DNA of 64,000 nt from Candidatus Omnitrophota bacterium (GTDB lineage Bacteria; Omnitrophota; Gorgyraeia; Zapsychrales; Zapsychraceae): assembly GCA_003528115.1 (NCBI GenBank), contig DOGZ01000014.1, forward strand, positions 66,466 to 130,465, read 5' to 3'. How positions within the stretch are numbered: position 1 is the first letter of the stretch; each line of letters starts with the position of its first letter. This document shows, in pieces, positions 27,751 to 63,069 of this stretch. Both the position numbers and the translations under genes were made by a program. The notes under the pieces are model-generated. The model saw only the letters and a list, made by a program, of their open reading frames with translations, did no database searches and was not told the origin of the DNA.

Positions 27751-27756
27751 TTTGAG

Positions 27757-28365: not shown

Positions 28366-28409
28366 AAGACAGAATCAGCATATCGTTGTGAGGTTAAAGG
28401 AGGACCGAC

Positions 28410-41506: not shown

Positions 41507-41528
41507 TGTTGGAAAGAGGAAGGTTACA

Positions 41529-42851: not shown

Positions 42852-42892
42852 ATCTTGAATCGCGCGTATAAATAATAAAAGAATAAAACGTT

Positions 42893-44194: not shown

Positions 44195-44227
44195 CGCAAG
44201 AATTTTCTAAACGCGAAGGGCGCAGAT

Positions 44228-45246: not shown

Positions 45247-46227
45247 ATGATGCGTTCCGGTAATATTCCCTCAGACAAATTATTAGCAATGTATGCCTCG
45301 CTGCTCAAGATCCGCCGGGTCCAACTCAAGATCGAGGAACATTATCATGAAAACGCAATGAAGACCCCCGTGCACCTTTGCCTGGGGCAGGAGGCGGTTT
45401 CCGTCGGCGTATGCGCGAACTTAAAGACACGAGATATGATCTTCAGCAATCACCGCAGCCACGGCCATTATTTGGCCAAGGGCGGAGATTTAAAAGCCAT
45501 GATGGCGGAACTTTATTGTAAAGAGACGGGGTGCGCGAAAGGCCGCGGGGGATCGATGCATCTGATTGATAAATCCGTCGGACATTTTGGATCATCCGCG
45601 ATTGTCGGCGGCGGCATCCCTCACGCGGTGGGGGCCGCGTTCGCCTTTAAGATGCGCAAAGAAGATCTTGTGGCCGTGACATTTTTCGGCGACGCGGCTT
45701 CGGAACAGGGCGTTTTTTATGAGAGCATGAATTGGGCGGCCCTCAAGAAACTGCCCGTCATTTTTGTCTGCGAGAATAATCATTATTCCGTGTGTTCGCA
45801 TATTGATGTCCGTCAGGCGAATTATGATATTTCCATGAGGGCCAGGGCTTTTGATATTCCCTCGATGAGGGTCGATGGGATGAATCTCCTGGAGGTGTGT
45901 GAGAAATCCCAGGCGGCTATTGAAATGGCCAGGGCTGGGAATGGGCCGTATCTCTTGGAGTGTGTCGTGCAGCGATGGCGGGCCCACGCCGGAGCCGGAG
46001 ATCCCCAAAAAGAACAGTATCGCAAGACGGAAGACATGGATGAATCCCGAAGGCGGGACCCTTTAAAGGATTTTACCGCTTATCTTCTGGATCATCGCGC
46101 GGCCGGCCAAGATCAGCTTGACGTCGTAGACCGGCAGATTGATCAGGAGATTGAAGCGGCGTTTCGTTTCGCCCGCGAAAGCCCCCTGCCGGATCCGGCG
46201 GGATTAGAGAAGTATTTATATTGCTGA
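45247..46227 (+). CDS. TPP-dependent dehydrogenase E1 component alpha subunit (acetoin/pyruvate dehydrogenase E1-alpha-like)
   Basis: TPP-binding motif GDAASEQG...CENNHYS. Confidence 0.8.
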   Translation: MMRSGNIPSDKLLAMYASLLKIRRVQLKIEEHYHENAMKTPVHLCLGQEAVSVGVCANLKTRDMIFSNHRSHGHYLAKGGDLKAMMAELYCKETGCAKGRGGSMHLIDKSVGHFGSSAIVGGGIPHAVGAAFAFKMRKEDLVAVTFFGDAASEQGVFYESMNWAALKKLPVIFVCENNHYSVCSHIDVRQANYDISMRARAFDIPSMRVDGMNLLEVCEKSQAAIEMARAGNGPYLLECVVQRWRAHAGAGDPQKEQYRKTEDMDESRRRDPLKDFTAYLLDHRAAGQDQLDVVDRQIDQEIEAAFRFARESPLPDPAGLEKYLYC

Positions 46228-46396: not shown

Positions 46397-47440
46397 ATGC
46401 CTTGGACCAAAATACAAGTCGAAAAACAGGAACCTGTCTTTGACGCCAGTGAAGGGCAGAATGTCCGCAAATTAAGTTACGGCGAGGCCATCCGCGAGGC
46501 CTTGGATCAGGCCCTGGAACGCGATCCCCGGGTCTATGTGATGGGGCAGGGGATCAATGATCCCGGGGGCATGTTTGGATCTACCGACGGTCTTTATAAA
46601 AAGTACGGTCTGGAGAGGGTCTTTGATACGCCGCTTTCCGAGGAGGGCATCCTGGGGATGGCCATCGGATCAGCCATGGCCGGCTTGCGTCCGGTTTCCA
46701 TCCATAACCGGCCGGACTTTCTTTTAATGGGGATGGACCAGATCGTCAATCACGCGGCCAAATGGAGTTATATGTTTGCCGGTCAAGTTCCGATCCCTCT
46801 GGTGATCCGTGCCTGTATCGGACGCGGATGGGGATCGGCGGCCCAGCATTCGCAGGCCTTGCAGTCCCTTTTTGTTCACATCCCCGGCCTCAAAGTGGTG
46901 ATGCCCTCGACGGCTTATGACGCGAAAGGATTATTGATCACCAGTATCGCCGATAATAACCCTGTTCTGTATTTTGAACAGCGCTGGGTGTACAAACATC
47001 AAGGGTATGTGCCTGAGGATGTTTATTCGATTCCCTTCGGGGAAGGGGTCATCAAAAGAGAAGGGACGGATGTTACGATCGTTGCCGTTTCTCACATGGT
47101 GATTGAATCCCTGCGCGCCGCAGAGGAATTGGAAAAAAAAGGCATCAGCGTTGAGATTATCGATCCACGCTCTTTAAAGCCTTTGGATGATCAGTTGATC
47201 CTTAAGTCTGTGGCCAAGACCGGCCGGCTGCTGGTCTCTGATTTGAGCTGGAAGACCGGCGGGTTCAGCGCTGAAGTCATCGCGACGGTCGTCGAGAAAG
47301 GATTTCACTTTCTTAAGAAAGCCCCTGTCCGCGTGGCCTTTCCGGATATCCCCACGCCCGCGGGCCATGTGCTGGAAGAGGCCTTTTATCCGGGGGTCGA
47401 GGATATTATTGAAGCCGTCCGGAAATTGATGGGAAAATGA
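46397..47440 (+). CDS. TPP-dependent dehydrogenase E1 component beta subunit (transketolase-like)
   Basis: 347 aa E1-beta architecture; paired with the E1-alpha upstream. Confidence 0.8.
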   Translation: MPWTKIQVEKQEPVFDASEGQNVRKLSYGEAIREALDQALERDPRVYVMGQGINDPGGMFGSTDGLYKKYGLERVFDTPLSEEGILGMAIGSAMAGLRPVSIHNRPDFLLMGMDQIVNHAAKWSYMFAGQVPIPLVIRACIGRGWGSAAQHSQALQSLFVHIPGLKVVMPSTAYDAKGLLITSIADNNPVLYFEQRWVYKHQGYVPEDVYSIPFGEGVIKREGTDVTIVAVSHMVIESLRAAEELEKKGISVEIIDPRSLKPLDDQLILKSVAKTGRLLVSDLSWKTGGFSAEVIATVVEKGFHFLKKAPVRVAFPDIPTPAGHVLEEAFYPGVEDIIEAVRKLMGK

Positions 47441-48390
47441 TGCGAAGACATTCGAAGATCCTGATCGTCGGGCACGACGACATCGTGGAAAACGCGTTGG
47501 TGGAACACTTTCAGTCGAAGGGGTTCAGCCGTGTCTTTTCTTCCTCCGCGATGGCCATGGACACCACCATTCAAACATCGGTTTATGATTTCTTTTCTCA
47601 GCATCGTCCCGAGTATGTGTTTTTAGGATCCACCCGTTCGGGCGGGATTGAAGCGAATCGGACAAGGGGCGCCGAATTTATTTATCATAACCTCGAGAGC
47701 CAAAATAACATTCTTTACGCGGCGCATAAGTTTGGTGTTGAGAAATTGCTTTTCCTGGCGAGTTCCTGTGTCTACCCCAAAGATTGCCCGCAGCCGATAC
47801 GGGAAGAGTCACTTTTAACCGGGGAGCTGGAGAAGACCAGTGAGCCCTACGCCGTGGCCAAGATCGCCGGCATCAAACTCTGTCAGGCGTTTCGACGGCA
47901 ATACGGACTTAAAACGGTGGTGATGATCCCTGCGACGATTTACGGACCGGGAAGTGATATGGATATCCAGACCGCTCATGTCATCGGCGCTTTGATCGGA
48001 AAGTTTGAATCGGCGGTAAGCCATCATGAAAAACAAGTGACGGTCTGGGGGACAGGCACGCCTCGAAGAGAGTTTATCTATGTGGAGGATTTTGTTCAGG
48101 CCTGTCTTTTCTTAATGGAGCATTATGATCAGGAAGAGATCGTGAATGCGGGGTGCGGATACGATGTCACCATTAAAGAACTGTCCGAGATGGTCGCTGA
48201 GGCGGTTGGATACAAAGGAGATATCATTTTTGACAGTTCCAAACCTGATGGAACGGCCAAGAAATTATTGCATAACAGCCGGATCACAAAACTAGGCTGG
48301 CGGCCCAGGGTTTCTTTAAAAGAAGGCGTTGAGAAAACAGTCGCGTGGTTTAAAGAGGAAGTCAAACATCAGAAGCGTGAATTTTTATAA
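47437..48390 (+). CDS. fcl: GDP-L-fucose synthase (GDP-4-keto-6-deoxymannose 3,5-epimerase/4-reductase)-like, with degenerate N-terminal Rossmann motif
   Basis: Recalled resemblance to E. coli Fcl (e.g. LLFLASSCVYPK...EPYAVAKIAGIKLCQAF); ATG overlaps the E1-beta stop (ATGA). Confidence 0.75.
   Translation: MMRRHSKILIVGHDDIVENALVEHFQSKGFSRVFSSSAMAMDTTIQTSVYDFFSQHRPEYVFLGSTRSGGIEANRTRGAEFIYHNLESQNNILYAAHKFGVEKLLFLASSCVYPKDCPQPIREESLLTGELEKTSEPYAVAKIAGIKLCQAFRRQYGLKTVVMIPATIYGPGSDMDIQTAHVIGALIGKFESAVSHHEKQVTVWGTGTPRREFIYVEDFVQACLFLMEHYDQEEIVNAGCGYDVTIKELSEMVAEAVGYKGDIIFDSSKPDGTAKKLLHNSRITKLGWRPRVSLKEGVEKTVAWFKEEVKHQKREFL
48298..48378 (+). repeat. direct repeat copy 1 (native 3' end of fcl)
   Basis: ~80 bp repeated at 49654-49733 (1 mismatch) and, more diverged, at 51412-51469. 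Confidence 0.85.
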
Positions 48391-48465
48391 CAGTGTATTT
48401 TATTGGCGCTTTTTATTATTTAATCAGACTTCTTCAAGGGATTTAGAATTAAAAAAGGATGTGAA

Positions 48466-48711
48466 ATGCGTATCCCCCCTAATAAACAATTATTTTGGTT
48501 TCTTAAAGATACTGTCTCTTTAGATCTGTCTAAAACTTCAGACCTGGAGCTGTATGTACAACAGGTACTATCCAGAGGAAACCAAGAGGACGTCAAAGCC
48601 CTCTTAACTGCGGTTGATTTTGAACAATTTAAGCAAGTATTCTCAAGAATTAAACGATTTTTTCCCTGGGAGGTTCGGGCTTTTTGGGAGGATTTCATTG
48701 AAAATTATTAA
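48466..48711 (+). CDS. small hypothetical protein, candidate antitoxin of the downstream AbiEii-like gene
   Basis: 81-aa ORF whose stop overlaps the likely TTG start (~48695) of the nucleotidyltransferase gene; no recognised domain. Confidence 0.3.
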   Translation: MRIPPNKQLFWFLKDTVSLDLSKTSDLELYVQQVLSRGNQEDVKALLTAVDFEQFKQVFSRIKRFFPWEVRAFWEDFIENY

Positions 48712-49378
48712 CTCGGTTCAAGAAAAAATTCTCAAAAGTTTCGGCGACATTAAAGACAGTGACCAGTTTTATTTAACTGGAGGTACCGCCCTGTCTTATT
48801 TTTATTTAAAACATAGACAGAGCAATGATCTGGACTTTTTTACTTCTACAGAAGAAATTGTCGGCTCATTCAGCCATCAACTTGAGGATCATTTAAAAGC
48901 TAATGGATTTAAGTGTCAGCGGCAAAGGGGGCTCCATTCATTTGTAGAACTGATTGTGACATTGGATAATGAAACAACGCTAATTCATCTTGCCGTAGAT
49001 GCTGCTTTTCGCTTCGAACCAACGAAAGAATTTCCTGCTTTCCTTCATCTGAAGGTTGATAACTTAACTGATATTGCGTCAAATAAATTATTGGCACTAT
49101 TTGGAAGAGCCACTTTAAGGGATTTCATTGACGTTTATTTTCTGATTAAAAAAGAGGGATTTTCAAAAGAACAATTAATTGATACTGCCAAGAAAAAAGA
49201 CCCGGGATTTGATTTGTATTGGCTCGGCGTGGCTTTTGAACGGATTAATACCTTTGACTCAAAATCTACGGATATCTTTATGCTCGTTAAGCCTTTACCA
49301 ATCGAAGAATTAAAAACGTTTTTCAACCAATGGCGTAAAGAAATTGCCGGCGAATTAAAACCTTTTAAAGGACAATAG
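48695..49378 (+). CDS. AbiEii/AbiGii-family (DUF1814) nucleotidyltransferase, putative type IV TA/abortive-infection toxin
   Basis: Motifs LTGGTALSYFYL, HRQSNDLDFF and RDFIDVYFL match recalled DUF1814 family motifs; AT-rich relative to neighbours; the ORF is open from 48614 but the probable start is TTG at ~48695. Confidence 0.6.
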   Translation, partial: SLKIINSVQEKILKSFGDIKDSDQFYLTGGTALSYFYLKHRQSNDLDFFTSTEEIVGSFSHQLEDHLKANGFKCQRQRGLHSFVELIVTLDNETTLIHLAVDAAFRFEPTKEFPAFLHLKVDNLTDIASNKLLALFGRATLRDFIDVYFLIKKEGFSKEQLIDTAKKKDPGFDLYWLGVAFERINTFDSKSTDIFMLVKPLPIEELKTFFNQWRKEIAGELKPFKGQ

Positions 49379-49381
49379 GTC

Positions 49382-49515
49382 CCTAACTCCTAATTAGGAA
49401 TTTCTATTCTCCTCGAGAGCTCATCGATATCCATTTTGCACCCATTGGGTGAAAAAACTAGCTCGTCGAAATATCGAGGGAGCCATGATTCTCTAATTAG
49501 GAGTTGAGGATAGGT
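49382..49515. repeat. short inverted-repeat-bounded element (CTAACTCCTAATTAGGA ... TCTAATTAGGAGTTGAG)
   Basis: 15-17 bp imperfect inverted repeats around a perfect 10-bp palindrome CCTAATTAGG, spaced ~100 bp apart in non-coding DNA. Confidence 0.4.
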
Positions 49516-49614
49516 GTTCCCATAGCGGCAAATGAGGTTCAAGCAAAGGATGAGGCGAAGGACAACGCCTTGACGTTATGTCGTCAAGGTCGGCCACCGG
49601 CGTGAGGTGTGAGG

Positions 49615-49733
49615 TTGCAATTGTCGCCCGCGGGAGAGAATTGTAGTGTAAAAGGCGGCCCAGGATTTCTTTAAAAGAAGGCGTTGAGAAAACAGTCGCG
49701 TGGTTTAAAGAGGAAGTCAAACATCAGAAGCGT
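49615..49733 (+). repeat. direct repeat copy 2 (junction module plus fcl 3'-end duplicate)
   Basis: 49654-49733 is ~99% identical to 48299-48378; 49615-49658 is similar to 51367-51410. Confidence 0.85.
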
Positions 49734-50047
49734 CCTGGTGCTTATTAAAAAAGGCGGTGGCATAGCGTTTATCGACGTCCGCACAAGTAATAGAATGCAT
49801 CCCTTTGGCAAAAGGACGTCGTTATACTGACTACTAGCACATTCTATTTCTTTTACAGAAGTCAGTAATTTACTTTGCAAGAAAAGAAATAAGAAATTTT
49901 TTTCTTGAGCTGTCGTTATTATGAAAAATAAAGTCTACATTCAGACATGGGGCTGGGCGATGAACGCGTTATAGGATGAGAATGGAGAGGACAGCTAAAC
50001 CATAGTAAATAATAAGTTGTAACAGAAATCATCTTTCTCTTAAAATT

Positions 50048-51007
50048 ATGCACGACAAAAATCTTCATTTATGGCAACATGCGCACACCTTTGGACAGGA
50101 GCATAAACGCTCCGGGGAACGCCGTACGACTCTTGTTATTGTCATTACGGCTGCAATGATGGCGGTTGAGATTGTTACCGGCATCCTCTTCGGCTCTATG
50201 GCCTTACTTGCCGATGGTCTGCACATGGCCTCTCATACAATTGCCCTTTTAATCAACGTTTTTGCCTACATCTATGCCCGACGTCATTCCCATGATACGC
50301 GGTACAGTTTCGGTACGGGAAAGGTCAACGCTCTGGGAGGATTCACCGGAGCAGTCCTACTCGCCGTTTTTGCTCTTATGATGGCGTGGGGGAGTATGGA
50401 GCGCCTTATGCATCCTGTTTCTATTGCCTTTAATCAAGCTATCTTTGTGGCCATCATCGGATTGATTATTAATGGAGTTTCGGTCTTTATCCTTGGGCAC
50501 GAAGAAGATAATCATGACGCGCATGAACATTCCGACCATCACCACGATGACCGCCACGACCACAATTTAAAATCAGCCTATTTTCATGTTTTAGCCGATG
50601 CCCTGACATCCATTCTGGCGATTATCGCTCTCTTGACAGCAAAATACTTTGGCCTCATTTGGATGGATCCTCTGATGGGCATTGTCGGTGCCATTTTGGT
50701 ATGCCAATGGTCGTTGGGACTTTTACGAACAACGAGCTCCATCTTGCTTGATAGACAGGGATCGGACGAACTCAAAACAAAGATCAAGGAAAGCATTGAA
50801 AGTGTTGGTGATAGTCGGGTCGCTGACCTGCATCTCTGGGTGTTGGGTCCGAATATCTACGGTGTCATCATTTCGGTGGTTACTCATAATCCCGAATCGC
50901 CGGAGTACTATAAAAAATTACTTCCTCTTCATTTGGGCCTTGCGCACGTGACAGTTGAGGTTTATCCGTGTCCCAACAAGGAAGAAACCAAAGTGTCGAA
51001 TCGATGA
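50048..51007 (+). CDS. czcD: cation diffusion facilitator (CzcD/ZitB-type) divalent metal efflux transporter
   Basis: 6 TM helices, His-rich cytoplasmic loop HEEDNHDAHEHSDHHHDDRHDHN, C-terminal CDF domain. Confidence 0.85.
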   Translation: MHDKNLHLWQHAHTFGQEHKRSGERRTTLVIVITAAMMAVEIVTGILFGSMALLADGLHMASHTIALLINVFAYIYARRHSHDTRYSFGTGKVNALGGFTGAVLLAVFALMMAWGSMERLMHPVSIAFNQAIFVAIIGLIINGVSVFILGHEEDNHDAHEHSDHHHDDRHDHNLKSAYFHVLADALTSILAIIALLTAKYFGLIWMDPLMGIVGAILVCQWSLGLLRTTSSILLDRQGSDELKTKIKESIESVGDSRVADLHLWVLGPNIYGVIISVVTHNPESPEYYKKLLPLHLGLAHVTVEVYPCPNKEETKVSNR

Positions 51008-51015
51008 AGTAAAGA

Positions 51016-51222
51016 AACAAAAGACCGCGCGGTACGAAAACCGAGATTGTCGAAGCCGCTATCGCTTCCTTTAAAAAGGAATTCGCGATTTCCGATCTCG
51101 AAAAAGCCTGCCCGGGAGTAAGCCGGGACATGATCCGCATTGTGATGAACCGCTTAAGGAAAGAGGGGCGGTTAAAAATCCTGGGCCGTGGCCGCGATGC
51201 ACGGTGGGCAAAACTCAAATAG
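51016..51222 (+). pseudogene. gene remnant: C-terminal winged-helix-like fragment without a start codon
   Basis: Frame open from a TAA stop at ~51013 with no usable start; translation ...ISDLEKACPGVSRDMIRIVMNRLRKEGRLKILGRGRDARWAKLK resembles C-terminal wHTH tails (e.g. of Fic/AbiEi-type proteins). Confidence 0.35.
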
Positions 51223-51366
51223 ACAATAGCACATCTTAACGTGGTAATGAATGTGGTAATATCAAGGGGTGCCGGAGAAGACCGTTGCCTGCCCTGAGTG
51301 AACGAAGTATGTCGATGGGGTACAATCCTAATGAAGGAGGGTGTCCTGGGAATTCTGGGAATGAGT

Positions 51367-51469
51367 TTGCAATTGTCGCCCGCGGAAGAGAATTGCAGAG
51401 TAAAATGCGGCGAGGTTTCTGTAAAAGAAGGCGTTGAGAAAACAGTCGCGTGGTTTAAAGAGAAAGTCA
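51367..51469 (+). repeat. direct repeat copy 3 (junction module plus diverged fcl 3'-end remnant) upstream of the epimerase gene
   Basis: TTGCAATTGTCGCCCGCGG... shared with copy 2; TAAAAGAAGGCGTTGAGAAAACAGTCGCGTGGTTTAAAGAG shared with the fcl 3' end. Confidence 0.8.
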
Positions 51470-51487
51470 ACAGACAGGAGAGTGTTC

Positions 51488-52420
51488 ATGAAGATATTAG
51501 TCACCGGAGGCGCGGGTTATTTAGGCGCTGTTATCGTTCCTGTATTACTGAAAGAAGGCCACCAGGTCTCGGTGGTTGACAATTTTATGTATAATCAAAC
51601 CCCTTTGCTGGATTGCTGCCATCATCGCGACTTAACGATTATCCGGGGGGATGCCCGGGATAAATCCCTTATTGCCAGGGAATTAAAAACCGCCGATGCC
51701 ATTTTCCCGCTGGCCTGTTTGACCGGCGCGCCTTTGTGCGCGAAAGATCCCCAGGCCGCGGAATCCATCATCGTCGAGTCCATAAAGATGATTTTGAGCT
51801 TGCGGAGCCCGGCCCAGAAAATTATTTATCCAACGACGAACAGCGGTTACGGTGTCGGCGAGAAGGGGAAGCATTGTACCGAAAAGACTCCTTTAAGACC
51901 GGTCTCTGTTTACGGCCGGCTGAAGGTCAAGGCGGAAGAGGAACTATTAAATGCCAAAGGAGCGATAACCTTGCGTTTGGCGACGGCTTTTGGGGTGAGC
52001 CCCCGGATGCGGCTGGATCTTCTGGTCAACGACTTTACGTACCGGGCGGTGAATGACCGTTTTGTGGTGTTGTTTGAAGCCCATTTTAAACGGAACTATA
52101 TTCATGTGCGCGACGTGGCCAAGGCCTTTGTACATTCTTTGAATCGTTTTGACAAAATGAAGGACGAACCATATAATGTAGGCCTGAGTGACGCCAATTT
52201 AAGCAAGTTGGAACTCTGCGCGGAGATCAAGAAACACGTTTCTGAATTCTATTTTGTCGAATCGGCGATCGGTCAGGATCCTGATAAAAGAGATTACATC
52301 GTCAGCAATGAAAAAATTGAGGAAACAGGATTCAAACCCGATGTCTCTCTCTCGGAAGGTATAAGCGAGCTTGTCAAGGGATACCAAATTATCAAGAGAA
52401 ATCAATACACAAATGTCTAA
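51488..52420 (+). CDS. NAD-dependent nucleotide-sugar epimerase/dehydratase (SDR)
   Basis: MKILVTGGAGYLGAV Rossmann motif and catalytic YGRLK (YxxxK); start at ATG 51488 (the ORF upstream of it is out-of-context repeat sequence). Confidence 0.8.
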   Translation: MKILVTGGAGYLGAVIVPVLLKEGHQVSVVDNFMYNQTPLLDCCHHRDLTIIRGDARDKSLIARELKTADAIFPLACLTGAPLCAKDPQAAESIIVESIKMILSLRSPAQKIIYPTTNSGYGVGEKGKHCTEKTPLRPVSVYGRLKVKAEEELLNAKGAITLRLATAFGVSPRMRLDLLVNDFTYRAVNDRFVVLFEAHFKRNYIHVRDVAKAFVHSLNRFDKMKDEPYNVGLSDANLSKLELCAEIKKHVSEFYFVESAIGQDPDKRDYIVSNEKIEETGFKPDVSLSEGISELVKGYQIIKRNQYTNV

Positions 52421-52534: not shown

Positions 52535-53995
52535 ATGGATATAGTCTTCATCAAAGCGAATAATCAAAAGAAAATCTATCAGGACCTCAGTAAAGATTTT
52601 ACGGGCATTGAACCTCCTTTATGGCTGGCCTTGACGGCCGCTTATATCAGAGAATACGGTTTCTCTGTGGCTGTGATTGACGCAGAGGCTGAAAATCTCG
52701 ATACCCAGGAAACGGTCGATCGGATCAAAGAATTCAATCCACGATTAGCCTCGGTGGTTGTCTCGGGGACGAACCCTTCCGCGTCCACTTTGAATATGCC
52801 CGGCGCGGGCGAAGTCCTAAGAGAGATGAAAAAGAAATGTCCGGGTATTCCAACGGTCATCTCCGGTCTTCATCCTTCAGCCTTGCCCGAGCGAACGGTG
52901 AAGGAAGAAACGGCCGATTTTGTTATGGAAGGGGAAGGGTTATCGACGCATTTAGAACTTCTTCAGGCCTTAAAATCAGGGAAGACGCTGGATGAAGAAT
53001 TTGCCCTGGACGGTCTTTGGTATAAAAGAGACGGCCGAATTATTTCCCATCCCAGGGCGGTCAATGTGAATGATTTGGGGATCCTGCCGATGCCGGCGTG
53101 GGATCTGCTGCCCATGGAGCAGTACCGGGCGCATAACTGGCATTGTTTTGGCCATGTCGATGAACGCCAGCCGTACGCCGTCATTTATACAAGTTTGGGG
53201 TGTCCGTTCAACTGCAGTTTTTGTTGCATCAATGTCACCTTCGGAGGATCAGGGATCCGGTATCGTCCTCCGGTCAAGGTCGTCGAAGAAATCGATTTTC
53301 TTGTGAAAAATTACGGCGTGAAGAATATCAAGGTCCTCGATGAACTGTTTGCCATGAAACAAACTCATGTGGAGGAATTATGTGATCGTCTGATTGCCCG
53401 CGGGTATGATCTGAATTTCTGGGTGTACGGCCGGATTGACACGGTCAAAGAATCCATGCTGGCCAAGATGAAGAAGGCGGGGATCAACTGGATTGCCTAC
53501 GGGATCGAGGCCGGCAGTAAAAGGGTGCGTGATGGAGTTTCCAAAGGGAGGTTCGATCAGGAACAGATTCGAAAGGTCGTTAAAATGACTCAGGCGGCCG
53601 GCATTTATGTCGTCGGTAATTTTATTTTCGGACTTCCTGAAGATGATCTTCAGACCATGCAGGAAACCTTGGATTTAGCCAAGGGATTAAATTGCGAGTA
53701 CGCCAACTTTTACTGTGCCATGGCGTATCCGGGTTCCAAGCTTTATGACGATGCCCTGGCGCAGGGGATCGCGCTTCCCCGGACATGGACCGGATACGCG
53801 CAATTTAGTGAAGAGACATTCCCCTTGGCGACGAAATATATCTCGGGCGCGGATGTCCTGCGGTTTCGCGATAAAGCCTTTGATGAATATTACGGCAGTC
53901 CGGTTTATTTAAATATGATTGAAGAAAAGTTCGGAGTGAGGACCGTTGAACATATCAAGGAAATGTGTTCCGTGAAGTTGAAAAGAAAATATTAG
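52535..53995 (+). CDS. B12-binding domain radical SAM enzyme
   Basis: N-terminal cobalamin-binding-like domain; radical SAM cluster motif CPFNCSFC (CxxxCxxC). Confidence 0.8.
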   Translation: MDIVFIKANNQKKIYQDLSKDFTGIEPPLWLALTAAYIREYGFSVAVIDAEAENLDTQETVDRIKEFNPRLASVVVSGTNPSASTLNMPGAGEVLREMKKKCPGIPTVISGLHPSALPERTVKEETADFVMEGEGLSTHLELLQALKSGKTLDEEFALDGLWYKRDGRIISHPRAVNVNDLGILPMPAWDLLPMEQYRAHNWHCFGHVDERQPYAVIYTSLGCPFNCSFCCINVTFGGSGIRYRPPVKVVEEIDFLVKNYGVKNIKVLDELFAMKQTHVEELCDRLIARGYDLNFWVYGRIDTVKESMLAKMKKAGINWIAYGIEAGSKRVRDGVSKGRFDQEQIRKVVKMTQAAGIYVVGNFIFGLPEDDLQTMQETLDLAKGLNCEYANFYCAMAYPGSKLYDDALAQGIALPRTWTGYAQFSEETFPLATKYISGADVLRFRDKAFDEYYGSPVYLNMIEEKFGVRTVEHIKEMCSVKLKRKY

Positions 53996-54029: not shown

Positions 54030-54767
54030 TTGAATTTAGAAAATGTTGATGCCGTTGTCCTCTGCGGGGGGCTTGGGAAAAGATTAAGAAGTGTTACCGG
54101 AGACAATCCAAAGGTTATGGCCGCGGTCGAGGGCAGGCCTTTTCTGGATGTCCTCATGGAGTATTTAGCGCGGCAGGGATTCAAACGGGTCATATTATGC
54201 ACCGGTTATCAAGCCGATCAGATTGAAGCGTATTACCGGCAAAACACCCACGGACTGCGTTTTGAGTTCTCCAGAGAAGAAGAACCTTTGGGGACGGGAG
54301 GGGCGGTAAGAAACGCCCGATGTTTGATTCAAAGTAGTCCTTTCGTTGTTTTAAATGGGGATTCATTTTGCGCGGTGAATTACCGCGCTCTGGGGGAGTT
54401 TCATCAATCCCGAAAAGCCCTGGCTTCTGTGGTTGTCTCGAAGGCCGAGGATCATAGGGATTACGGGGGCATTGTCCTTGATGAAACCGGCAGGATTGTC
54501 CGTTTCCTCGAGAAGAATAACCCGGTTCTGTCCGGCGGAAAGAAGACAGCGGACGAGGTCTCCTGCGTCAATGCCGGGATTTATTGTTTTAATGACGAAA
54601 TTTTTTCCTTCATGCCCAAAGCACGGACCTTTTCTTTGGAATATGATTTTTTCCCAGGTCTTGTACGACATCTTTTTTTTGGTTTTCTGGTGGAGGAGGC
54701 CTTCTTGGACATTGGCACGCCGGAAAGATATCAGCAGGCCTTGGCAAAAATGAAAAGACCGGTTTAA
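54030..54767 (+). CDS. sugar-1-phosphate nucleotidyltransferase (HddC / GDP-heptose-type)
   Basis: TTG start; nucleotide-binding motif VVLCGGLGKRLRSVTGDNPKVM typical of the NTP_transferase family. Confidence 0.75.
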   Translation: MNLENVDAVVLCGGLGKRLRSVTGDNPKVMAAVEGRPFLDVLMEYLARQGFKRVILCTGYQADQIEAYYRQNTHGLRFEFSREEEPLGTGGAVRNARCLIQSSPFVVLNGDSFCAVNYRALGEFHQSRKALASVVVSKAEDHRDYGGIVLDETGRIVRFLEKNNPVLSGGKKTADEVSCVNAGIYCFNDEIFSFMPKARTFSLEYDFFPGLVRHLFFGFLVEEAFLDIGTPERYQQALAKMKRPV

Positions 54768-54916: not shown

Positions 54917-55714
54917 ATGGTTTTGCGTTCTCAGCAGGAGAAACAACGCGTGGAAGATATTATCGTCAGGAACAAGATGACGGCTTACAGTCTTTCGGTG
55001 GTGATTCCGGTTTATAATGAAGAAGACTGTATTGAAGAGACGCTGGCGAAGATTCAGGAGTTCTTGAACGTCCGTTTCCAGGATTATGAGATCCTTGTCG
55101 TGGATGACGGCAGTGATGACGGGACGTATTTAAAAGTCAAAGCCTTGGCCGAGAAAAACAAACGCATCCAATTGTTCAAGAACGATAGAAACAGCGGTAA
55201 GGGATTTAGCGTCAAAAGGGGCATGCTGGCGGCCACGTCGGACTTTGTTTTGTTCATGGACGCGGACTGCTCAACCCCGGTTGAAGAAATTATGAAATTT
55301 GTGCCGTATTTCTCCCAAGACATCGATATCCTGCTGGGTTCCAGAGTCTTGAAAGAGTCTAACGTCCTTAAGAGGCAAGGGGTTATCCGCAGGAGCTTGG
55401 GTCGGTTGTTTAATTGCCTTATTCAGATATTTTTATTCCAAGGCGTCCAGGATACGCAATGCGGGTTTAAGTGTTTTAAAAGACAGGCCGCCCAGAAATT
55501 ATTTAAACTCCAAACGATTCAGCGGTATTGTTTTGACGCCGAGATTCTTTTCTTGGCCAGAAAACGGAACTGTACCATTAAAGAAATTCCGATCACCTGG
55601 GTCAACAGAAAGAATTCAAGATTGGGAATTATAAAAGACGCCCCGAAAATGCTTTCCGATTTATTAAAGATCCGGTGGAATGATTGGAAGGGTATATATG
55701 CGGATTCCCGCTAA
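54917..55714 (+). CDS. family 2 glycosyltransferase (polyprenol-phosphate sugar transferase, DPM1/ArnC-like)
   Basis: SVVIPVYNEEDCI...VVDDGSDDGT GT2 signature with DAD motif (FMDADCS). Confidence 0.8.
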   Translation: MVLRSQQEKQRVEDIIVRNKMTAYSLSVVIPVYNEEDCIEETLAKIQEFLNVRFQDYEILVVDDGSDDGTYLKVKALAEKNKRIQLFKNDRNSGKGFSVKRGMLAATSDFVLFMDADCSTPVEEIMKFVPYFSQDIDILLGSRVLKESNVLKRQGVIRRSLGRLFNCLIQIFLFQGVQDTQCGFKCFKRQAAQKLFKLQTIQRYCFDAEILFLARKRNCTIKEIPITWVNRKNSRLGIIKDAPKMLSDLLKIRWNDWKGIYADSR

Positions 55715-55736: not shown

Positions 55737-56891
55737 ATGCGAAAGACATTTAAAGTTCCCTTCGGGACGGTTTCTATCACGCCGGAGGCGCGTCAGCTCA
55801 TTGACCGGATCCTTGAGTCCACGTGGGTGACCAAGGGGAAATATGTGCAAGAGTTCGAGAAGAAATTCGCGGAGCTTTTCGGCGTCAAGGAGGCCGTGGC
55901 GGTCAGCAGCGGCACGGATGCCGATGCCCTGGCCTGCGCGGTCCTTTATGACTTTGGGGCGCGGCGCGGGGATGAAATTATCGTCCCGGCCCTTTCTTTC
56001 GTCGCTACGGGCAATGCCGTCTTTCAGGCGGGATTTGTTCCTGTCTTTGTGGATGTCCAGAGGGAGACATTAAATATCAATCCGGCGAAGATCGAAGAAG
56101 TGATCACGCCCAAGACCCGGGCTATCATGCCGGTGCATTTGATGGGGAAGCCGGCCGCGATGGATCAGATCCAAGAGATCGCCCGGCGACACAAGCTTTT
56201 TGTGATTGAAGATGCCGCCGAGGCTCATGGCGCGCAATACCGGGGGGAAAAAATCGGGGCTATCGGAGATATGGCGGCCTTCAGCCTTTACGCGGCGCAT
56301 ATTGTGACAACGATTGAAGGCGGGATCATGACGACCAATAATCCCGCGATGGCGGAGGCCATGCGGTCGTTGCGCAATCATGGCATGGTGAACAAATTCA
56401 CTTTCCAGCGCATCGGCTTTTCCGCCAAGATGAATGAAATTGAGGCGGCGGTCGGTCTGGGGAATATCCAAATATTCTCGACCATCCTGGAGAAACGCCG
56501 AAGAAATTTGATTTATCTTATTGACAAATTCAGGAGATTCGAAGATTATTTTATAACCCTCAAAGAGGAGCCGTACGAAAAAATAGGGCCGCACGCCTTT
56601 TCGATCATTCTGCGGGAAAAGGTGGGCTTTACCAAGGACGAATTTGTTTCTTACATCGAAGCCAAGGGAATCGATTCGCGGAATCTCTTTTATTCCATGC
56701 CGACCCAAACGGCCAGTTACGCCTTTTTAGGCCATAAGCTCGGGGATTTTCCCGAGGCGGAGTATTGTTCAGATCAGGGGACACACATCGGCATCCATCA
56801 AGACATTTCTTCGGAAGACCTGGATTATATCGCGGAGGTCGTTCAGACGTTTCTCCAATCAAAAAGATTAAGGGTTCGCTCATGCACATAG
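55737..56891 (+). CDS. DegT/DnrJ/EryC1/StrS-family PLP-dependent sugar aminotransferase
   Basis: Family architecture; PLP-lysine region; ORF is open from 55680, overlapping the GT2 end. Confidence 0.8.
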   Translation: MRKTFKVPFGTVSITPEARQLIDRILESTWVTKGKYVQEFEKKFAELFGVKEAVAVSSGTDADALACAVLYDFGARRGDEIIVPALSFVATGNAVFQAGFVPVFVDVQRETLNINPAKIEEVITPKTRAIMPVHLMGKPAAMDQIQEIARRHKLFVIEDAAEAHGAQYRGEKIGAIGDMAAFSLYAAHIVTTIEGGIMTTNNPAMAEAMRSLRNHGMVNKFTFQRIGFSAKMNEIEAAVGLGNIQIFSTILEKRRRNLIYLIDKFRRFEDYFITLKEEPYEKIGPHAFSIILREKVGFTKDEFVSYIEAKGIDSRNLFYSMPTQTASYAFLGHKLGDFPEAEYCSDQGTHIGIHQDISSEDLDYIAEVVQTFLQSKRLRVRSCT

Positions 56892-57997
56892 CCATCAATT
56901 GCCGGTCGTTTATAAAAAAGAAATATACGGGAATTGGAAGGTATACCTACCATTTAGTTAAAAGCCTGAGCGAGATCGACACGCAGAATGAATATCAGTT
57001 ATACGCGAAAAAAGGCATTCTGAATCTCAACAAGCGCCTGCCGCATTTCGGCGTCAAGAATTTTATTATCAAGACGGATCGATTTAACAGAGGCATCGAA
57101 AAGTCTTTGGGAAAAGTCGATATTTACCATTCCCCCAGCCCTGATTCCCTGAATGTCAATAATGGAGCCAGAATCGTTGTGACGGTCCATGATCTGATTT
57201 TTAAAGCCTTTCCGCAGGGACACACGCAGAGAACGCTGGATGAGACAGAAAAACAGTTTACGAACATAGGGAAAATCGCCTCAAAGATTATTTGTTGTTC
57301 TCAAAATACGATTAACGATCTCAAGAAATATTTTCAAGTCCCTGAGGACAAAATCGCTTTAGTTTACCAGGGCGTCGACAAAAATTTGTTTTATCGTGTC
57401 GGCAAAGACGAAGAGCCGACAGCCGCTAAAATGATCAGGGCCAGAGGCCTGAAAGAGCCGTTTGTTTTGTCCGTCGGGACTATTGAGCCGCGGAAGAACC
57501 TGGAAAATCTTCTTCATGCCTTTGACAAATTAAGGACGAGAAATCAATTTAAGGGAAAATTGGTTGTGATCGGCATGAAGGGATGGATGAGCGACGGGAT
57601 TGAAGGCCTCATCCGTAAGCTTGAGTTGAAGAATCATGTGATCTTTTTAGGATATCTCTCGGACCAGGAACTGCGGTATTTTTATAACAAGGCGGAGGCT
57701 TTTGTCTTTCCGTCTTTTTACGAGGGATTCGGGTTCCCTATTGTAGAGGCCTTTGCCTGCGGGGCACCCGTGGTCACTTCGAACGTTTCTTCCTGCCCCG
57801 AGGTCGCTCGGGACGCCGCCCTGATCGTCGATCCTTACCGGCCCGAAGATATTGCCGGGGCCATTGCCCGGATCGTGAAAGATTCTTCCCTTCGACAGAC
57901 TTTAAGGCAAAAAGGGTTTAAAAGAGCGCAAGATTTCAATTTCCGCAAGACAGCCGAGGAGACATTGAAAGTTTATCAAGAGGTTTACCGGACGTGA
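56882..57997 (+). CDS. family 4 glycosyltransferase (GT-B)
   Basis: C-terminal GT4 motif EGFGFPIVEAFACGAPVV. Confidence 0.8.
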   Translation: MHIAINCRSFIKKKYTGIGRYTYHLVKSLSEIDTQNEYQLYAKKGILNLNKRLPHFGVKNFIIKTDRFNRGIEKSLGKVDIYHSPSPDSLNVNNGARIVVTVHDLIFKAFPQGHTQRTLDETEKQFTNIGKIASKIICCSQNTINDLKKYFQVPEDKIALVYQGVDKNLFYRVGKDEEPTAAKMIRARGLKEPFVLSVGTIEPRKNLENLLHAFDKLRTRNQFKGKLVVIGMKGWMSDGIEGLIRKLELKNHVIFLGYLSDQELRYFYNKAEAFVFPSFYEGFGFPIVEAFACGAPVVTSNVSSCPEVARDAALIVDPYRPEDIAGAIARIVKDSSLRQTLRQKGFKRAQDFNFRKTAEETLKVYQEVYRT

Positions 57998-58040: not shown

Positions 58041-58883
58041 ATGAAAATAAGCGGTTGTACCATTGCGCGCAATGTGATCAAATATAATTATCCTGTCCTG
58101 GAATCCATACAATCGATCCTGCCGATCTGTGATGAGTTTGTTGTTAACGTCGGTGATTCTCAAGACGAGACGCTGGCCTTAATTAAGTCGATTAAAAGCG
58201 ATAAAATACGCATCATTCAAAATGTCTGGGATTTTTCGCAAAAAGCAGAAGTCCTTTCCCACCAGACCAATCTGGCCTTGCGCGCATGTCGCGGGGACTG
58301 GACGTTTTATCTTCAATCCGATGAGGTGATCCATGAAGAGGATCTTCCCGTGCTGGAGAGGATGATGCGCCGGTATCTGGAGGACAAAGAGGTGGAGGCT
58401 TTAAGATTTAAATGGTTTCATTTTTACGGGAGTTATTTCCGGTACAGGATTGATCGCGGCTGGTACCAGAAGCAAGACAGAATTATCCGTAATAACGGGG
58501 AGATTGAATCGTATGGGGACGCGTACGGTTTTCGGCGCAAGGACGCTCAGCCCTTAAAAAGAAAGAACACCGGGTGCTTTCTGTATCATTATGGTTGGGT
58601 TCAGCCCGAGGATGTGATGAAACAGAGACGGATCAACGCCGAGAAAATTGGATTTGTCACACTGCAGGAAGGGGAGCGAAGGCAAGAATATAGTTATAGT
58701 GATTTAAACCGATTTCCGATCTATTGGGGAACTCATCCTCAGGGGATGGGGAGGAGGATCCGGGAACACCGGTTGAGTCAAAAGGATTTAAAGGAGATCA
58801 ACAAGAAATACTGGTGGCATCCGTTCAAATGGCTGAAGGTCAGGTATAAAACATTTAAGAGAATCTCCCATAAAATTGAATAA
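58041..58883 (+). CDS. putative glycosyltransferase (GT2-like LPS biosynthesis family)
   Basis: 280 aa; N-terminal region resembles small GT2-like LPS proteins; assignment tentative. Confidence 0.45.
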   Translation: MKISGCTIARNVIKYNYPVLESIQSILPICDEFVVNVGDSQDETLALIKSIKSDKIRIIQNVWDFSQKAEVLSHQTNLALRACRGDWTFYLQSDEVIHEEDLPVLERMMRRYLEDKEVEALRFKWFHFYGSYFRYRIDRGWYQKQDRIIRNNGEIESYGDAYGFRRKDAQPLKRKNTGCFLYHYGWVQPEDVMKQRRINAEKIGFVTLQEGERRQEYSYSDLNRFPIYWGTHPQGMGRRIREHRLSQKDLKEINKKYWWHPFKWLKVRYKTFKRISHKIE

Positions 58884-59964: not shown

Positions 59965-61050
59965 ATGAGCGCGTTGCCCCAGCCGTTAAAGAGAGTTTTG
60001 ATTATTAACATTTTCGGTATCGGCGATGTCCTTTTTACCACTCCCCTGATCCGCAATTTGAAATCCTCTTTCCCTGATATTTTTATTGGGTATCTCTGCA
60101 ATCAACGGGCCCGCCCGGTGCTTGAAAATAATCCTCACGTGGACAAAATTTTTGTTTATGAACGCGATGACTTTAAGAAGATTTATGATCAGTCCAGGAT
60201 TCTCTATTTAAAGAAATTAAACGCGTTTATGAAGGATATCCGCCGGGAGGGATTTGAGGTTGTCCTGGATGTCTCCTTAAACAGTTTCACGGGTTTTCTG
60301 GCGTGGTGGGCGGGCATTAAACACCGGGTGGGGTTTGATTATAAGAACAGAGGTTTTTTTCTGAATCATAAGATTTTCTTGAAAGGGTATGAAGAGAAGC
60401 ATGTGGTTGAGTATTATTTGAAGCTCTTAGAGGAAGTCGATGTTCCTGTTGTGAGCAAAACCCTTGAATTTCATGTCCGCCGTGAGGACGCGGAGTGGGC
60501 GGGGCATTTTCTCAAGAGTCAGGGGGTTTCTCCGGACAGTTTGCTGATTGGCCTGGTGCCGGGGGGCGGGGCCAGTTGGGGGAAGGACGCTTTCTACAAG
60601 CGATGGCCCGCGGAGAAATACGCGAAATTAGCCGATAAATTATTTGAAAAATATTCCGCGGATATTATACTGTTGGGTGATTCAAAAGAATTGGGCGTAT
60701 CCGCGGAGGTCGCTCGCCTGATGCGCCATCCCGCCGTATTGGCTACGGGTCTGACAACCATCGGTCAATTCGCGGCGTTGACACAGAAATGCTCTTTCAA
60801 TATTCTCAACGATGGCGGTCCGTTGCATGTGGCTGTAGCCGCCGGGGCAAAAACAGTTTCTATCTTCGGGCCTGTGGATGAACGTGTTTACGGCCCTTAT
60901 CCACGATCGGATCATCATAAAGTTGTCACCAAGCAGCTCGCCTGCCGGCCGTGCTATCGGCGTTTTCGAAGGGCCAGTTGTGACCATATAAGTTGTCTCC
61001 ATCAAATAACTGTGGACGATGTCCTCCAAGAGGCGGCGGAGATTATTTGA
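59965..61050 (+). CDS. family 9 glycosyltransferase (ADP-heptose:LPS heptosyltransferase-like)
   Basis: RVLIINIFGIGDVLFTTPLIRNLK N-terminus and GT9 architecture. Confidence 0.75.
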   Translation: MSALPQPLKRVLIINIFGIGDVLFTTPLIRNLKSSFPDIFIGYLCNQRARPVLENNPHVDKIFVYERDDFKKIYDQSRILYLKKLNAFMKDIRREGFEVVLDVSLNSFTGFLAWWAGIKHRVGFDYKNRGFFLNHKIFLKGYEEKHVVEYYLKLLEEVDVPVVSKTLEFHVRREDAEWAGHFLKSQGVSPDSLLIGLVPGGGASWGKDAFYKRWPAEKYAKLADKLFEKYSADIILLGDSKELGVSAEVARLMRHPAVLATGLTTIGQFAALTQKCSFNILNDGGPLHVAVAAGAKTVSIFGPVDERVYGPYPRSDHHKVVTKQLACRPCYRRFRRASCDHISCLHQITVDDVLQEAAEII

Positions 61051-61102
61051 CCATAGATTCCAATTTCCCAGGCGCCTGGAAAATTGGGGGAAACAAGAAG
61101 GG

Positions 61103-62239
61103 ATGAAGGGCATGAGTGTTCCATTTATCGATTTTAGCCAGCAATATCACGCCATTAAGGACCGGATTGACGTCGGGCTTAAAAGGGTTTTTGAAAAGGG
61201 GAATTTTATTTTGGGTGAGGAGGAGAAGGTCTTTGAGACGGATTTTGCCAAATATTGTGACGCGGCGTACGCGGTGGGGGTGAATTCCGGAACCGACGCG
61301 TTATATTTAGCGTTGGCGGCTCTGGACATAGGGCCCGGGGATGAGGTGGTCCTTCCGACTTTTTCTTTTATCGCCACAGCCCTGTGCGTTTCGTACACCG
61401 GCGCCAGGCCTGTCTTTGTCGATATCCAGGAAGACACGTATAATATTGATCCACAGAAACTTAAAAAGGCCATCACGCATAAAACCAAGGCGATCCTTCC
61501 TGTCCATATTTACGGTCAGCCGGCGGATATCAACGAGATTGCAGAGATTGCCCGAGGGCATAATATCCCTGTTGTTGAAGACGCGGCCCAGGCGCATGGG
61601 GCCCTCTATCAGGGGAGAAAAGTCGGATCCCTGGGGGAAAGCGCCTGTTTCAGTTTTTACCCGACTAAAAGTCTTGGGGCGTTCGGCGACGGCGGGATGG
61701 TCGTGACCAGTAATAAAAAAATCTATGAGAAGGTGATGATGCTGAGGGATTACGGCCGGAGTGATCGCTATGATCACAAGATTAAGGGATTTAATTCGCG
61801 GCTGGACACCGTCCAGGCGGTTGTTTTATCGGCCAAATTGAACCATCTCGATGAATGGAACAAGATGCGTTTGGATAACGCGGCCTATTATTGTCAAGTG
61901 CTCAAGGAGGCGGAGGGCATCATCACGCCGGTCATGAAACAGGACAGGACCCATGTCTTTCAAACATTTGCCGTGCGTTTGAAAAACCGTGACGCGGTCT
62001 GCGACCGGATGAAGAACAAAGGGATCGGGGTCTTGATTCATTATCCTATTCCCATACATCTTCAGGAGGCGTATGCCGATTTAGGATATAAAAGAGGTGA
62101 TTTCCCCGTCTCAGAACGGGTGGCCGGAGAGATTCTGTCTTTGCCGATGTTCCCGCATATGCGTAGAGAGCAGATTCAATACGTCTGTGAATCCCTAAAA
62201 GAATTCATCACCTGCGGGGGGTTGAAAGGAAAACAATGA
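61103..62239 (+). CDS. DegT/DnrJ/EryC1-family PLP-dependent sugar aminotransferase (second copy)
   Basis: Second DegT-family gene in the locus; PLP-lysine region (FSFYPTKSLG). Confidence 0.8.
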   Translation: MKGMSVPFIDFSQQYHAIKDRIDVGLKRVFEKGNFILGEEEKVFETDFAKYCDAAYAVGVNSGTDALYLALAALDIGPGDEVVLPTFSFIATALCVSYTGARPVFVDIQEDTYNIDPQKLKKAITHKTKAILPVHIYGQPADINEIAEIARGHNIPVVEDAAQAHGALYQGRKVGSLGESACFSFYPTKSLGAFGDGGMVVTSNKKIYEKVMMLRDYGRSDRYDHKIKGFNSRLDTVQAVVLSAKLNHLDEWNKMRLDNAAYYCQVLKEAEGIITPVMKQDRTHVFQTFAVRLKNRDAVCDRMKNKGIGVLIHYPIPIHLQEAYADLGYKRGDFPVSERVAGEILSLPMFPHMRREQIQYVCESLKEFITCGGLKGKQ

Positions 62240-63000: not shown

Positions 63001-63069
63001 GGTCGGGATTCAAACCCGAGGACTTTGGTTATGGTGGAATCCCGGATCAATCGAAAGGGAGATGGAGGA

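Follow-up and report, generated by a model that had tools for sequence, protein, structure and literature searches.

A class B radical SAM enzyme family associated with a conserved GDP-heptose gene module in Omnitrophota and other bacteria

The class B radical S-adenosylmethionine (SAM) enzymes described to date come chiefly from pathways for antibiotics, cofactors and lipids. Here we report on a family of such enzymes that is represented by a gene at positions 52535–53995 (+ strand) of a 64,000-nucleotide stretch of DNA from a Candidatus Omnitrophota bacterium (GenBank assembly GCA_003528115.1, contig DOGZ01000014.1, positions 66,466 to 130,465 of the forward strand; this whole stretch is called the window). 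The encoded protein, called the focal enzyme, is very likely a class B radical SAM enzyme that performs a dedicated tailoring step in a conserved pathway by which GDP-heptose is modified for a surface glycan, and it probably makes a yet-undescribed cell-surface sugar.

The capsular GDP-heptose pathway of Campylobacter jejuni, which comprises HddA, HddC, GmhA and GmhB, the dehydrogenase Cj1427, a C3-dehydratase and C4-reductases, follows the same precursor logic as the gene module described here (PMC10680097). Both contain a Cj1427-type short-chain dehydrogenase/reductase (SDR; 60% identical), a His-type 3-dehydratase (in the module a predicted one) and an fcl-like reductase; the C. jejuni pathway is without a radical SAM enzyme and without a thiamine diphosphate (ThDP)-dependent enzyme, whereas the module has both. 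The yersiniose and erwiniose pathways run through the same sequence of steps as the module, with a 3-dehydratase of the E1 or ColD type, a ThDP enzyme (YerE/ErwE) and a reductase (YerF/ErwF), but they operate on CDP-hexoses with a single-chain YerE-type enzyme and no radical SAM enzyme, in contrast to the GDP-heptose, the two-subunit ThDP enzyme and the core class B radical SAM enzyme of the module. Among the radical SAM enzymes, HpnJ has the same two-domain architecture as the focal protein and a presumed sugar substrate, its context being hopanoid (hpn) genes and that of the focal family GDP-heptose genes. HpnJ has been genetically implicated in the conversion of a sugar to a cyclopentane, the cyclitol of bacteriohopanetetrol (BHT) cyclitol ether, with the chemistry unproven biochemically (PMC9092360). 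Known sugar methylases of the GenK/Fom3 type act on aminoglycoside and antibiotic intermediates, whereas the context of the focal gene is GDP-heptose for a surface glycan. The family and the module were described in none of the publications retrieved by a literature search on radical SAM or B12 in connection with heptose, polysaccharides or GDP-sugars.

The focal gene is an ATG-started open reading frame (ORF) with its stop at 53995 and encodes 486 amino acids. Residues 22–139 (52598–52951, + strand) constitute a Rossmann-type cobalamin-binding domain (Pfam PF02310; 65.6 bits, cutoff 32.1) and residues 218–382 (53186–53680, + strand) the radical SAM core (PF04055; 69.1 bits, cutoff 29.5), both so far over the curated thresholds that a chance match is not an issue. 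The CxxxCxxC motif of the [4Fe-4S]/SAM site, CPFNCSFC, is found at residues 223–230 (C223/C227/C230; 53201–53224, + strand), which bears out the original prediction, made by a model from the DNA letters, of an N-terminal cobalamin-binding domain together with this motif. Like class B radical SAM enzymes in general, the protein lacks the canonical DxHxxG motif. An AlphaFold (AF2) model of the protein has a pLDDT of 91.2, and the predicted fold agrees with radical SAM structures. With both sequence-defined features of class B present, the CxxxCxxC radical SAM core and the N-terminal B12-binding domain, the focal protein is a class B radical SAM enzyme by architecture, and its use of cobalamin is predicted. 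The protein is 100% identical to P0002 of Omnitrophica WOR_2 bacterium GWA2_45_18, can be aligned over its whole length with hundreds of orthologues, and has kept every invariant residue. A housekeeping radical SAM enzyme of the HemN or MiaB type, which the original prediction had named beforehand as the outcome that would contradict it, is ruled out by the low scores of the corresponding hidden Markov models (HMMs; HemN-type 30.5 bits, cutoff 504; HemZ 21.5 bits, cutoff 321; MiaB/RimO 23.3 bits, cutoff 251) and by the presence of the B12-binding domain.

The family was delimited by a search of 5.8 billion proteins and by a scan of species-representative genomes. The first search yielded full-length relatives with no names or only generic ones, of which the top 120 were 57–74% identical to the focal protein; the second found relatives in at least 583 genomes, the best 80 of them 50–71% identical. 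The hosts of these best 80 belong to Omnitrophota, Planctomycetota, Nitrospirota, Chloroflexota, Desulfobacterota, Elusimicrobiota, Margulisiibacteriota, Poribacteria, Cyanobacteria and Proteobacteria, and include one Methanoperedenaceae archaeon. A proteobacterial branch of the family, to which Herbaspirillum sp. DW155 belongs, has just as many members, and cultured carriers with plasmid-borne genes are Solidesulfovibrio magneticus RS-1 (pDMC1; orthologue DMR_RS21980) and three Azospirillum species, among them Azospirillum lipoferum 4B (orthologue AZOLI_RS29160).

Two signatures set the family apart. The loop SGTNPSAST (52763–52789, + strand), which follows strand 3 of the Rossmann domain, has G78, N80, P81, A83, S84 and T85 invariant among 20 aligned orthologues, and the motif YRAHNWHCF (53123–53149, + strand), just N-terminal of the cluster-binding loop, has Y197, A199, H200, N201, W202 and H203 invariant and C204 in at least 90% of them. 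The three cluster cysteines are invariant in the family and likewise present in BchE, the name that the automatic annotation of JGI gives to many family members. A genuine BchE is about 26% identical to the focal protein over the cobalamin-binding and radical SAM domains, but it has a long C-terminal extension, the SGTNPSAST loop is deleted and the YRAHNWHCF motif is missing; the focal family, for its part, has no photosynthesis or bacteriochlorophyll context. Both signatures are also missing from the paralogous radical SAM enzymes that accompany the family in some gene clusters. In these clusters the family is single-copy and core, and the other class B enzymes are accessory: nine loci (L019, L026, L028, L034, L038, L039, L052, L053, L062) carry one to three extra class B genes of other families, whose products are 25–39% identical to the focal protein and lack the HNW residues of the motif. 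Their occurrence suggests that certain lineages subject this sugar to additional radical tailoring.

The gene neighbourhood was compared in the 80 best-scoring genome loci, using tBLASTn with the window proteins and unbiased clustering of all ORFs; partner counts refer to those 49 loci that are 18 kb or longer, which span at least 10 phyla. The counts depend on the similarity thresholds, and they include contigs of metagenome-assembled genomes (MAGs) that are possibly chimeric or truncated. A two-subunit ThDP enzyme accompanies the radical SAM gene in 45 of these loci, a DegT-family protein in 44, an HddA-like GHMP kinase in 43 and a Cj1427-like SDR (SDR2) in 41, where it mostly stands directly 5' of the radical SAM gene. 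A GDP-fucose-synthase-like SDR (SDR1) is present in 35–41 loci and an HddC-like nucleotidyltransferase in 35–39, and GmhA-like SIS and GmhB-like HAD genes occur in about 10–20%. Gene order varies between phyla, while the gene set persists.

The ThDP enzyme, which the original prediction had not linked to the radical SAM gene, is a core partner. It is of the E1 alpha/beta type in 25 of the 49 loci; another 20 have a split transketolase-like pair, and the two types never share a locus. The ThDP genes are mostly found directly 5' of the radical SAM gene, the order TktN–TktC–radical SAM occurring in L018, L031, L044 and L081. The notion that the E1 pair is an optional addition present in about half of the loci was dropped after ORF clustering had found the split transketolase in the other half. 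A third type of pair, made up of short E1_dh/Transket_pyr proteins of 199 and 178 amino acids, is encoded on a Herbaspirillum-type contig (L089). The DegT protein is similarly replaced in 17 loci by an alternative, ColD-type DegT (FSFYFAHHMST) whose best matches in the Protein Data Bank (PDB) are ColD and WbdK. That the positions of the ThDP enzyme and of the predicted 3-dehydratase are each filled by alternative, non-orthologous proteins argues for selection of the functions, beyond that of the genes themselves, along with the radical SAM enzyme.

This pattern bears on the possibility that the enzyme is linked to the module by position only and acts on a non-sugar substrate (a lipid, a cofactor or a peptide), or that it performs some other radical transformation. 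A few family members do sit away from the module, and weakly similar class B families act on lipids or on ribosomally synthesized and post-translationally modified peptides (RiPPs). However, the same six or seven sugar genes co-localise with the family in about 90% of the long loci across many phyla, and the linkage survives both the shuffling of gene order and the analogous replacement of two partners, so that we regard this explanation as unlikely. The members that lack an adjoining GDP-heptose module (L004, L005 and L014 from bacterium DP16D_bin.2, L029 and L075) are 52–59% identical; the family member of L004 is flanked by a 252-residue and a 496-residue protein of no known type and one GT2 glycosyltransferase. 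These genomes may carry the module genes at another place, or there may be a second setting in which the enzyme works.

The partner genes of the window point to the chemistry of the substrate. SDR2 (51488–52420, + strand), directly upstream of the focal gene, matches PDB entries 6vo6/6vo8 with an E value of 2.5e-121 and about 60% identity over residues 2–309. In the homology search, the 6vo6 sequence is a 313-residue protein of Campylobacter jejuni, which we take to be Cj1427 from the depositor's name and from Huddleston et al. 2020. The upstream gene had been described as an NDP-sugar epimerase, and an extended SDR is indeed encoded there, although its identity is different: it is an orthologue of the GDP-heptose C4-dehydrogenase Cj1427. 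Alignments with orthologues and the overlap with the preceding gene make an ATG start at 51488 more likely than a TTG start at 51434. Cj1427 oxidises GDP-heptose at C4, and its tightly bound NADH is re-oxidised by 2-oxoglutarate, which yields L-2-hydroxyglutarate (PMC10680097). The sugar cluster on plasmid pDMC1 of S. magneticus RS-1 (L088) contains a gene for an L-2-hydroxyglutarate oxidase at 27444–28646, and such a gene is also found in L043, L051, L072, L076 and L083 (5 of the 80 loci) and is absent from the 64-kb window; the oxidase would recycle the L-2-hydroxyglutarate produced by a Cj1427-type dehydrogenase.

The DegT-family protein (55737–56891, + strand; PF01041) has a histidine, His207 (56298–56300), in place of the catalytic lysine: its FSLYAAH aligns with FSFFGNK of perosamine synthase, which contains the Schiff-base lysine, and histidine occupies this position in all 41 of the 41 orthologues. 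Such a replacement is a hallmark of sugar 3-dehydratases (ColD, E1, SpnQ). The exchange leads to the prediction that the protein is a GDP-4-keto-heptose 3-dehydratase dependent on pyridoxamine or pyridoxal phosphate (PMP/PLP); it should be a 3-dehydratase and not an aminotransferase, and an amino-heptose aminotransferase, as the top PDB match to perosamine synthase would have it, is ruled out by the Lys-to-His exchange in all orthologues. The C. jejuni HS:5 pathway, which has a C3-dehydratase, offers a comparison for the His-type DegT (PMC10680097). The start of the gene is more likely the ATG at 55737 than the mechanically assigned ORF start at 55680, judging by orthologue alignments and gene overlap. 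A second DegT of the window (61019–62239) retains the lysine (FSFYPTK) and should be a true aminotransferase.

The remaining partners complete the picture. The gene downstream of the focal gene (54030–54767, + strand; PF00483) encodes an HddC/ManC-like sugar-1-phosphate guanylyltransferase, which scores 153.9 bits with the NCBIfam model of HddC and 156.3 bits with that of mannose-1-phosphate guanylyltransferase, both under the cutoff; the heptose-type nucleotidyltransferase and the sugar-pathway setting that the original prediction had proposed are supported by synteny, which is conserved in dozens of loci from different phyla. SDR1 (47437–48390, + strand) is a GDP-L-fucose-synthase-like epimerase/reductase (NCBIfam Fcl, 378 bits, cutoff 500) with GDP-fucose synthases as its best PDB matches, and the ThDP enzyme is encoded by genes for an E1 alpha-like subunit (45247–46227, + strand; PF00676) and an E1 beta-like subunit (46397–47440, + strand; PF02779 and PF02780). 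Across the loci, the best match is HddA for the kinase, GmhA for the isomerase, GmhB for the phosphatase and HddC/ManC for the transferase, with scores below or near the cutoffs. From these matches it follows that every identifiable partner is a GDP-sugar or heptose enzyme.

We infer the following substrate and order of steps. The Cj1427-type SDR2 would oxidise C4 of the heptose with 2-oxoglutarate as oxidant, and the His-type DegT would then remove the 3-hydroxyl group to give GDP-3-deoxy-4-keto-heptose, a compound that has so far been produced only by combining C. jejuni enzymes in vitro (PMC10680097). The ThDP enzyme, of which the two subunits are E1 alpha/beta in the window and a split transketolase in other loci, would add a C2 acyl unit, which by the logic of YerE and ErwE would go onto the C4 ketone; 3-deoxy-4-keto NDP-sugars are known acceptors of these two branching enzymes (PMC9306805). 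The radical SAM enzyme would act on a non-activated carbon, SDR1 would finish the sugar by reduction or epimerisation, and glycosyltransferases (GT2 and GT4 here; a polyprenyl-phosphate GT2 and a GT-C in other loci) would transfer it. The pathway would work like a hybrid of two schemes, both of which lack a radical SAM step: the C. jejuni GDP-heptose scheme, and the 3-dehydration followed by ThDP-dependent branching of the colitose/yersiniose scheme. An HMGL-type aldolase gene located 5' of the E1 genes in L002 echoes ErwI of the erwiniose pathway, and genes for NUDIX hydrolases recur in L002, L048, L072, L073, L076, L087 and L088.

For the radical step itself we tentatively favour a GenK-type C-methylation of the GDP-sugar. 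Reductive cleavage of SAM would produce a 5'-deoxyadenosyl radical that abstracts a hydrogen atom at C6, at C7 or at the acyl branch; methylcobalamin would then methylate the substrate radical and would itself be regenerated by a second SAM. Most characterised enzymes of this architecture are methylases, which we count in favour of methylation. This mechanism gives cobalamin a clear role and needs no partner reductase beyond SDR1, the N-terminal domain is TsrM/OxsB-like, and MgmA, TsrM, CysS and TokK are among the structural neighbours. The original prediction had suggested a sugar C-methyltransferase or an epimerase, and of these methylation stands as a leading candidate.

Several observations weigh against methylation and against the assignment to the pathway. 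The HMM classification assigns the protein to the B12-binding and Radical_SAM families, but no NCBIfam model reaches its cutoff on it, and no assignment to a GenK/Fom3-type subfamily emerged. The methylase models score low (HpnR 66 bits, cutoff 650; PhpK 79, cutoff 600; TsrM 49, cutoff 500; KedN5 45, cutoff 700; MgmA-type 85, cutoff 360), in an HMM library that holds no model of GenK or Fom3, and the solved cobalamin-dependent methylases TsrM, TokK, CysS and MgmA are 15–20% identical to the focal protein. Two non-methylases, HpnJ and BchE, rank first and second among the curated models in all 20 of the diverse members tested, and the closest structure, AprD4, is that of a dehydratase. We know of no glycan with a sugar of the predicted kind, a branched 3-deoxy heptose that is C-methylated. 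The family members of L004/L014, L029 and L075 sit off-module, the 64-kb window contains no HddA-like GHMP kinase and no GmhA-like isomerase, and its module is split by foreign genes (an AbiEii toxin gene at 48614–49378 with a small upstream ORF, and a cation-efflux CDF gene at 50048–51007).

The structural comparison raises the alternative of a dehydratase. When the model was compared with known structures, AprD4 (PDB 6FD2) came first with a score of 33.1 over 405 aligned residues, followed by MgmA (29.7), TsrM (29.0), CysS (28.3), TokK (23.6) and OxsB (20.7). AprD4 is the sugar 1,2-diol dehydratase of apramycin biosynthesis and uses no cobalamin. A cobalamin-independent enzyme of this kind would abstract hydrogen at the C6/C7 diol and lose water, and its 7-deoxy-6-keto or 6-deoxy-7-aldehyde product would then be reduced by an SDR or serve as the electrophile for chain extension by the ThDP carboligase. 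The substrate of AprD4 is a sugar diol and its partner enzyme an SDR, an aldehyde is the usual type of acceptor in carboligations by transketolase and E1 enzymes, and the SDR of the module, which is of the Cj1427 type and not of the 4,6-dehydratase type, leaves the C6/C7 diol intact. However, the AprD4 family model (NF033070) scores 90 bits against a cutoff of 500, with the match restricted to the radical SAM half. As AprD4 shows, a Rossmann fold by itself is no proof of cobalamin binding. Unlike that of AprD4, the N-terminal domain of the focal protein matches the B12-binding family well, and its loop residues are invariant: it aligns with the cobalamin domains of TsrM and OxsB, and partly with those of CysS and TokK, while the alignment with the N-terminal domain of AprD4 is not significant. 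Because TsrM and OxsB align across both domains and AprD4 only across the radical SAM half, the N-terminal domain is nearer to genuine cobalamin domains than to the vestigial one of AprD4. Moreover, the deoxygenation at C3 would already be accomplished by the His-type DegT, and a 4,6-dehydratase would be a far cheaper way to a 6-deoxy sugar. A diol dehydratase is accordingly quite improbable.

The ranking of the curated models points to a radical enzyme that forms or rearranges C–C bonds, in the manner of HpnJ, BchE or OxsB, and such a cyclase or rearrangase is a possible, if doubtful, alternative to methylation. HpnJ (TIGR03471) aligns over nearly the full length (residues 28–462) with 159.5 bits and BchE (TIGR02026) with 149.8 bits, the best HpnJ match among the tested members having an E value of 2.7e-58; the remaining curated matches are a mix of class B families. 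After acylation of C4, the 5'-deoxyadenosyl radical would take hydrogen from C7, and the resulting alpha-hydroxyalkyl radical would add to the branch carbonyl, C8. The product would be the cyclopentane C4-C5-C6-C7-C8 of a caryose-type carbocyclic nonose (4,8-cyclo-3,9-dideoxynonose). BchE itself forms a carbocycle, the ThDP genes are mostly directly 5' of the radical SAM gene, and the chemistry of the module fits caryose atom for atom: a heptose, a 3-deoxygenation, a pyruvate-derived C2 unit with a terminal methyl group, and one C7–C8 bond. The bond from C7 to the ketone carbon C8 needs umpolung or radical chemistry, which would explain why a radical enzyme is core to the module. The invariant His/His/Cys motif could supply acid–base catalysis and donate a hydrogen atom, and the single-copy, core status of the family, next to the accessory status of the other class B enzymes, is likewise in line with cyclisation. 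According to a 2022 review, it is not known how caryose arises; the review attributes conversions of sugars to cyclopentanes (HpnJ, calditol synthase, PtmC) to radical SAM enzymes (PMC9092360).

Against cyclisation, the scores are far under the cutoffs (577.6 for HpnJ, 481 for BchE), so that the focal protein is not a member of either family, and the activity of HpnJ itself is without biochemical proof. No carrier of the module is known as a caryose producer. The best 120 matches to a betaproteobacterial family member were unnamed or MAG sequences and Herbaspirillum sp. DW155, a result that does not speak for or against a link to Burkholderia caryophylli, the producer of caryan and caryose. 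The addition of a carbon radical to a carbonyl group is energetically demanding, cobalamin would have no clear role, and the part played by the fcl-like SDR would not be accounted for. The specific caryose-type product, in which C7 of the GDP-3-deoxy-heptose is joined to the carbonyl carbon of the acyl branch installed at C4 by the ThDP enzyme, is a rather doubtful proposition in its own right.

An epimerase, the other half of the original suggestion, would invert an unactivated stereocentre (for example C6) and return the hydrogen from a cysteine on the opposite face. Radical SAM sugar epimerases exist, and the nearly invariant Cys204 within the family-specific motif might be such a donor, but the known radical epimerases are without a B12-binding domain, the epimerisation of heptoses at C6 is normally the work of an SDR (HldD), and nothing in the neighbourhood calls for this activity; we consider it very improbable.

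In the window, the module forms part of a lipopolysaccharide (LPS)/glycan locus at about 39–64 kb, which contains LptD, glycosyltransferases, a heptosyltransferase, the Lys-type DegT at 61019–62239, and genes similar to ManC and GmhB. The GmhB-like gene (63025–63627, + strand) encodes a putative heptose-bisphosphate phosphatase (NCBIfam PRK08942, 147 bits, cutoff 178) that is 28% identical to the module HAD protein of L006. The lack of a kinase gene is shared with the close relative L012, as is the insertion of a GT2 glycosyltransferase of the polyprenyl-phosphate type (ArnC/DPM-like; 54917–55714, + strand; PF00535, ArnC-type model 76 bits) between the nucleotidyltransferase and DegT. A GT4 glycosyltransferase (56882–57997, + strand; PF00534), whose start is more likely the ATG at 56882 than the mechanically assigned one at 56765, is kept 3' of the module in close Omnitrophota relatives and has 48–57% identical orthologues in L007–L012 and L039; it is followed by a GT2-like protein (58041–58883, + strand; weak PF00535), likewise kept 3' in close relatives, with 60–72% identical orthologues in L007–L012. 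Between LptD and the E1 genes (41376–45181) are two genes of the UDP-glucose/GDP-mannose dehydrogenase family and a UXS-like SDR gene, a block that the closest Omnitrophota relatives (L001/L007, L009, L010) likewise have ahead of the module, so that this glycan locus seems to include a UDP-GlcA/xylose-type branch.

The foreign genes that split the module between SDR1 and SDR2 are arranged in two cassettes (48379–51403), recognised by repeats, Pfam matches and a dip in G + C content down to 0.40 in this region of about 3 kb. The last 80 nucleotides of SDR1 occur three times, at 48299–48378, at 49654–49733 (99% identical) and at 51404–51483 (80% identical), with one copy after each cassette, as if the same site had been the target of more than one insertion and the sugar operon had been split in this way. 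A perfect sigma-70 consensus (TTGACA, a spacer of 17 nucleotides, TATAAT; 12 of 12 positions) at 52149–52177 (+ strand) lies inside the coding region of SDR2, about 360 nucleotides 5' of the radical SAM start, and could be an internal promoter or a chance match. An Rfam scan of the window detected no riboswitch or other RNA element.

This study corrects the annotations of two neighbouring genes, the 'epimerase' (SDR2) and the 'aminotransferase' (DegT), and adds to the class B radical SAM enzymes a strongly conserved family (50–74% identity across phyla) that is wired into a primary GDP-heptose pathway for surface glycans. Cultured carriers exist (Solidesulfovibrio magneticus RS-1, Azospirillum spp., Herbaspirillum sp.), the upstream substrates are all accessible with the published C. 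jejuni enzymes, and the question of caryose biosynthesis can be put to a direct test. To our knowledge, carbocyclic LPS sugars of the caryose type are so far known from one Burkholderia species. If the caryose interpretation is true, the module would be the first biosynthetic route to such carbocyclic LPS sugars, and they would be made by hundreds of mostly uncultivated species in more than 10 phyla. The module predicts that a higher-carbon sugar (3-deoxy, ThDP-extended and radically modified) is present on the surface of many environmental bacteria.

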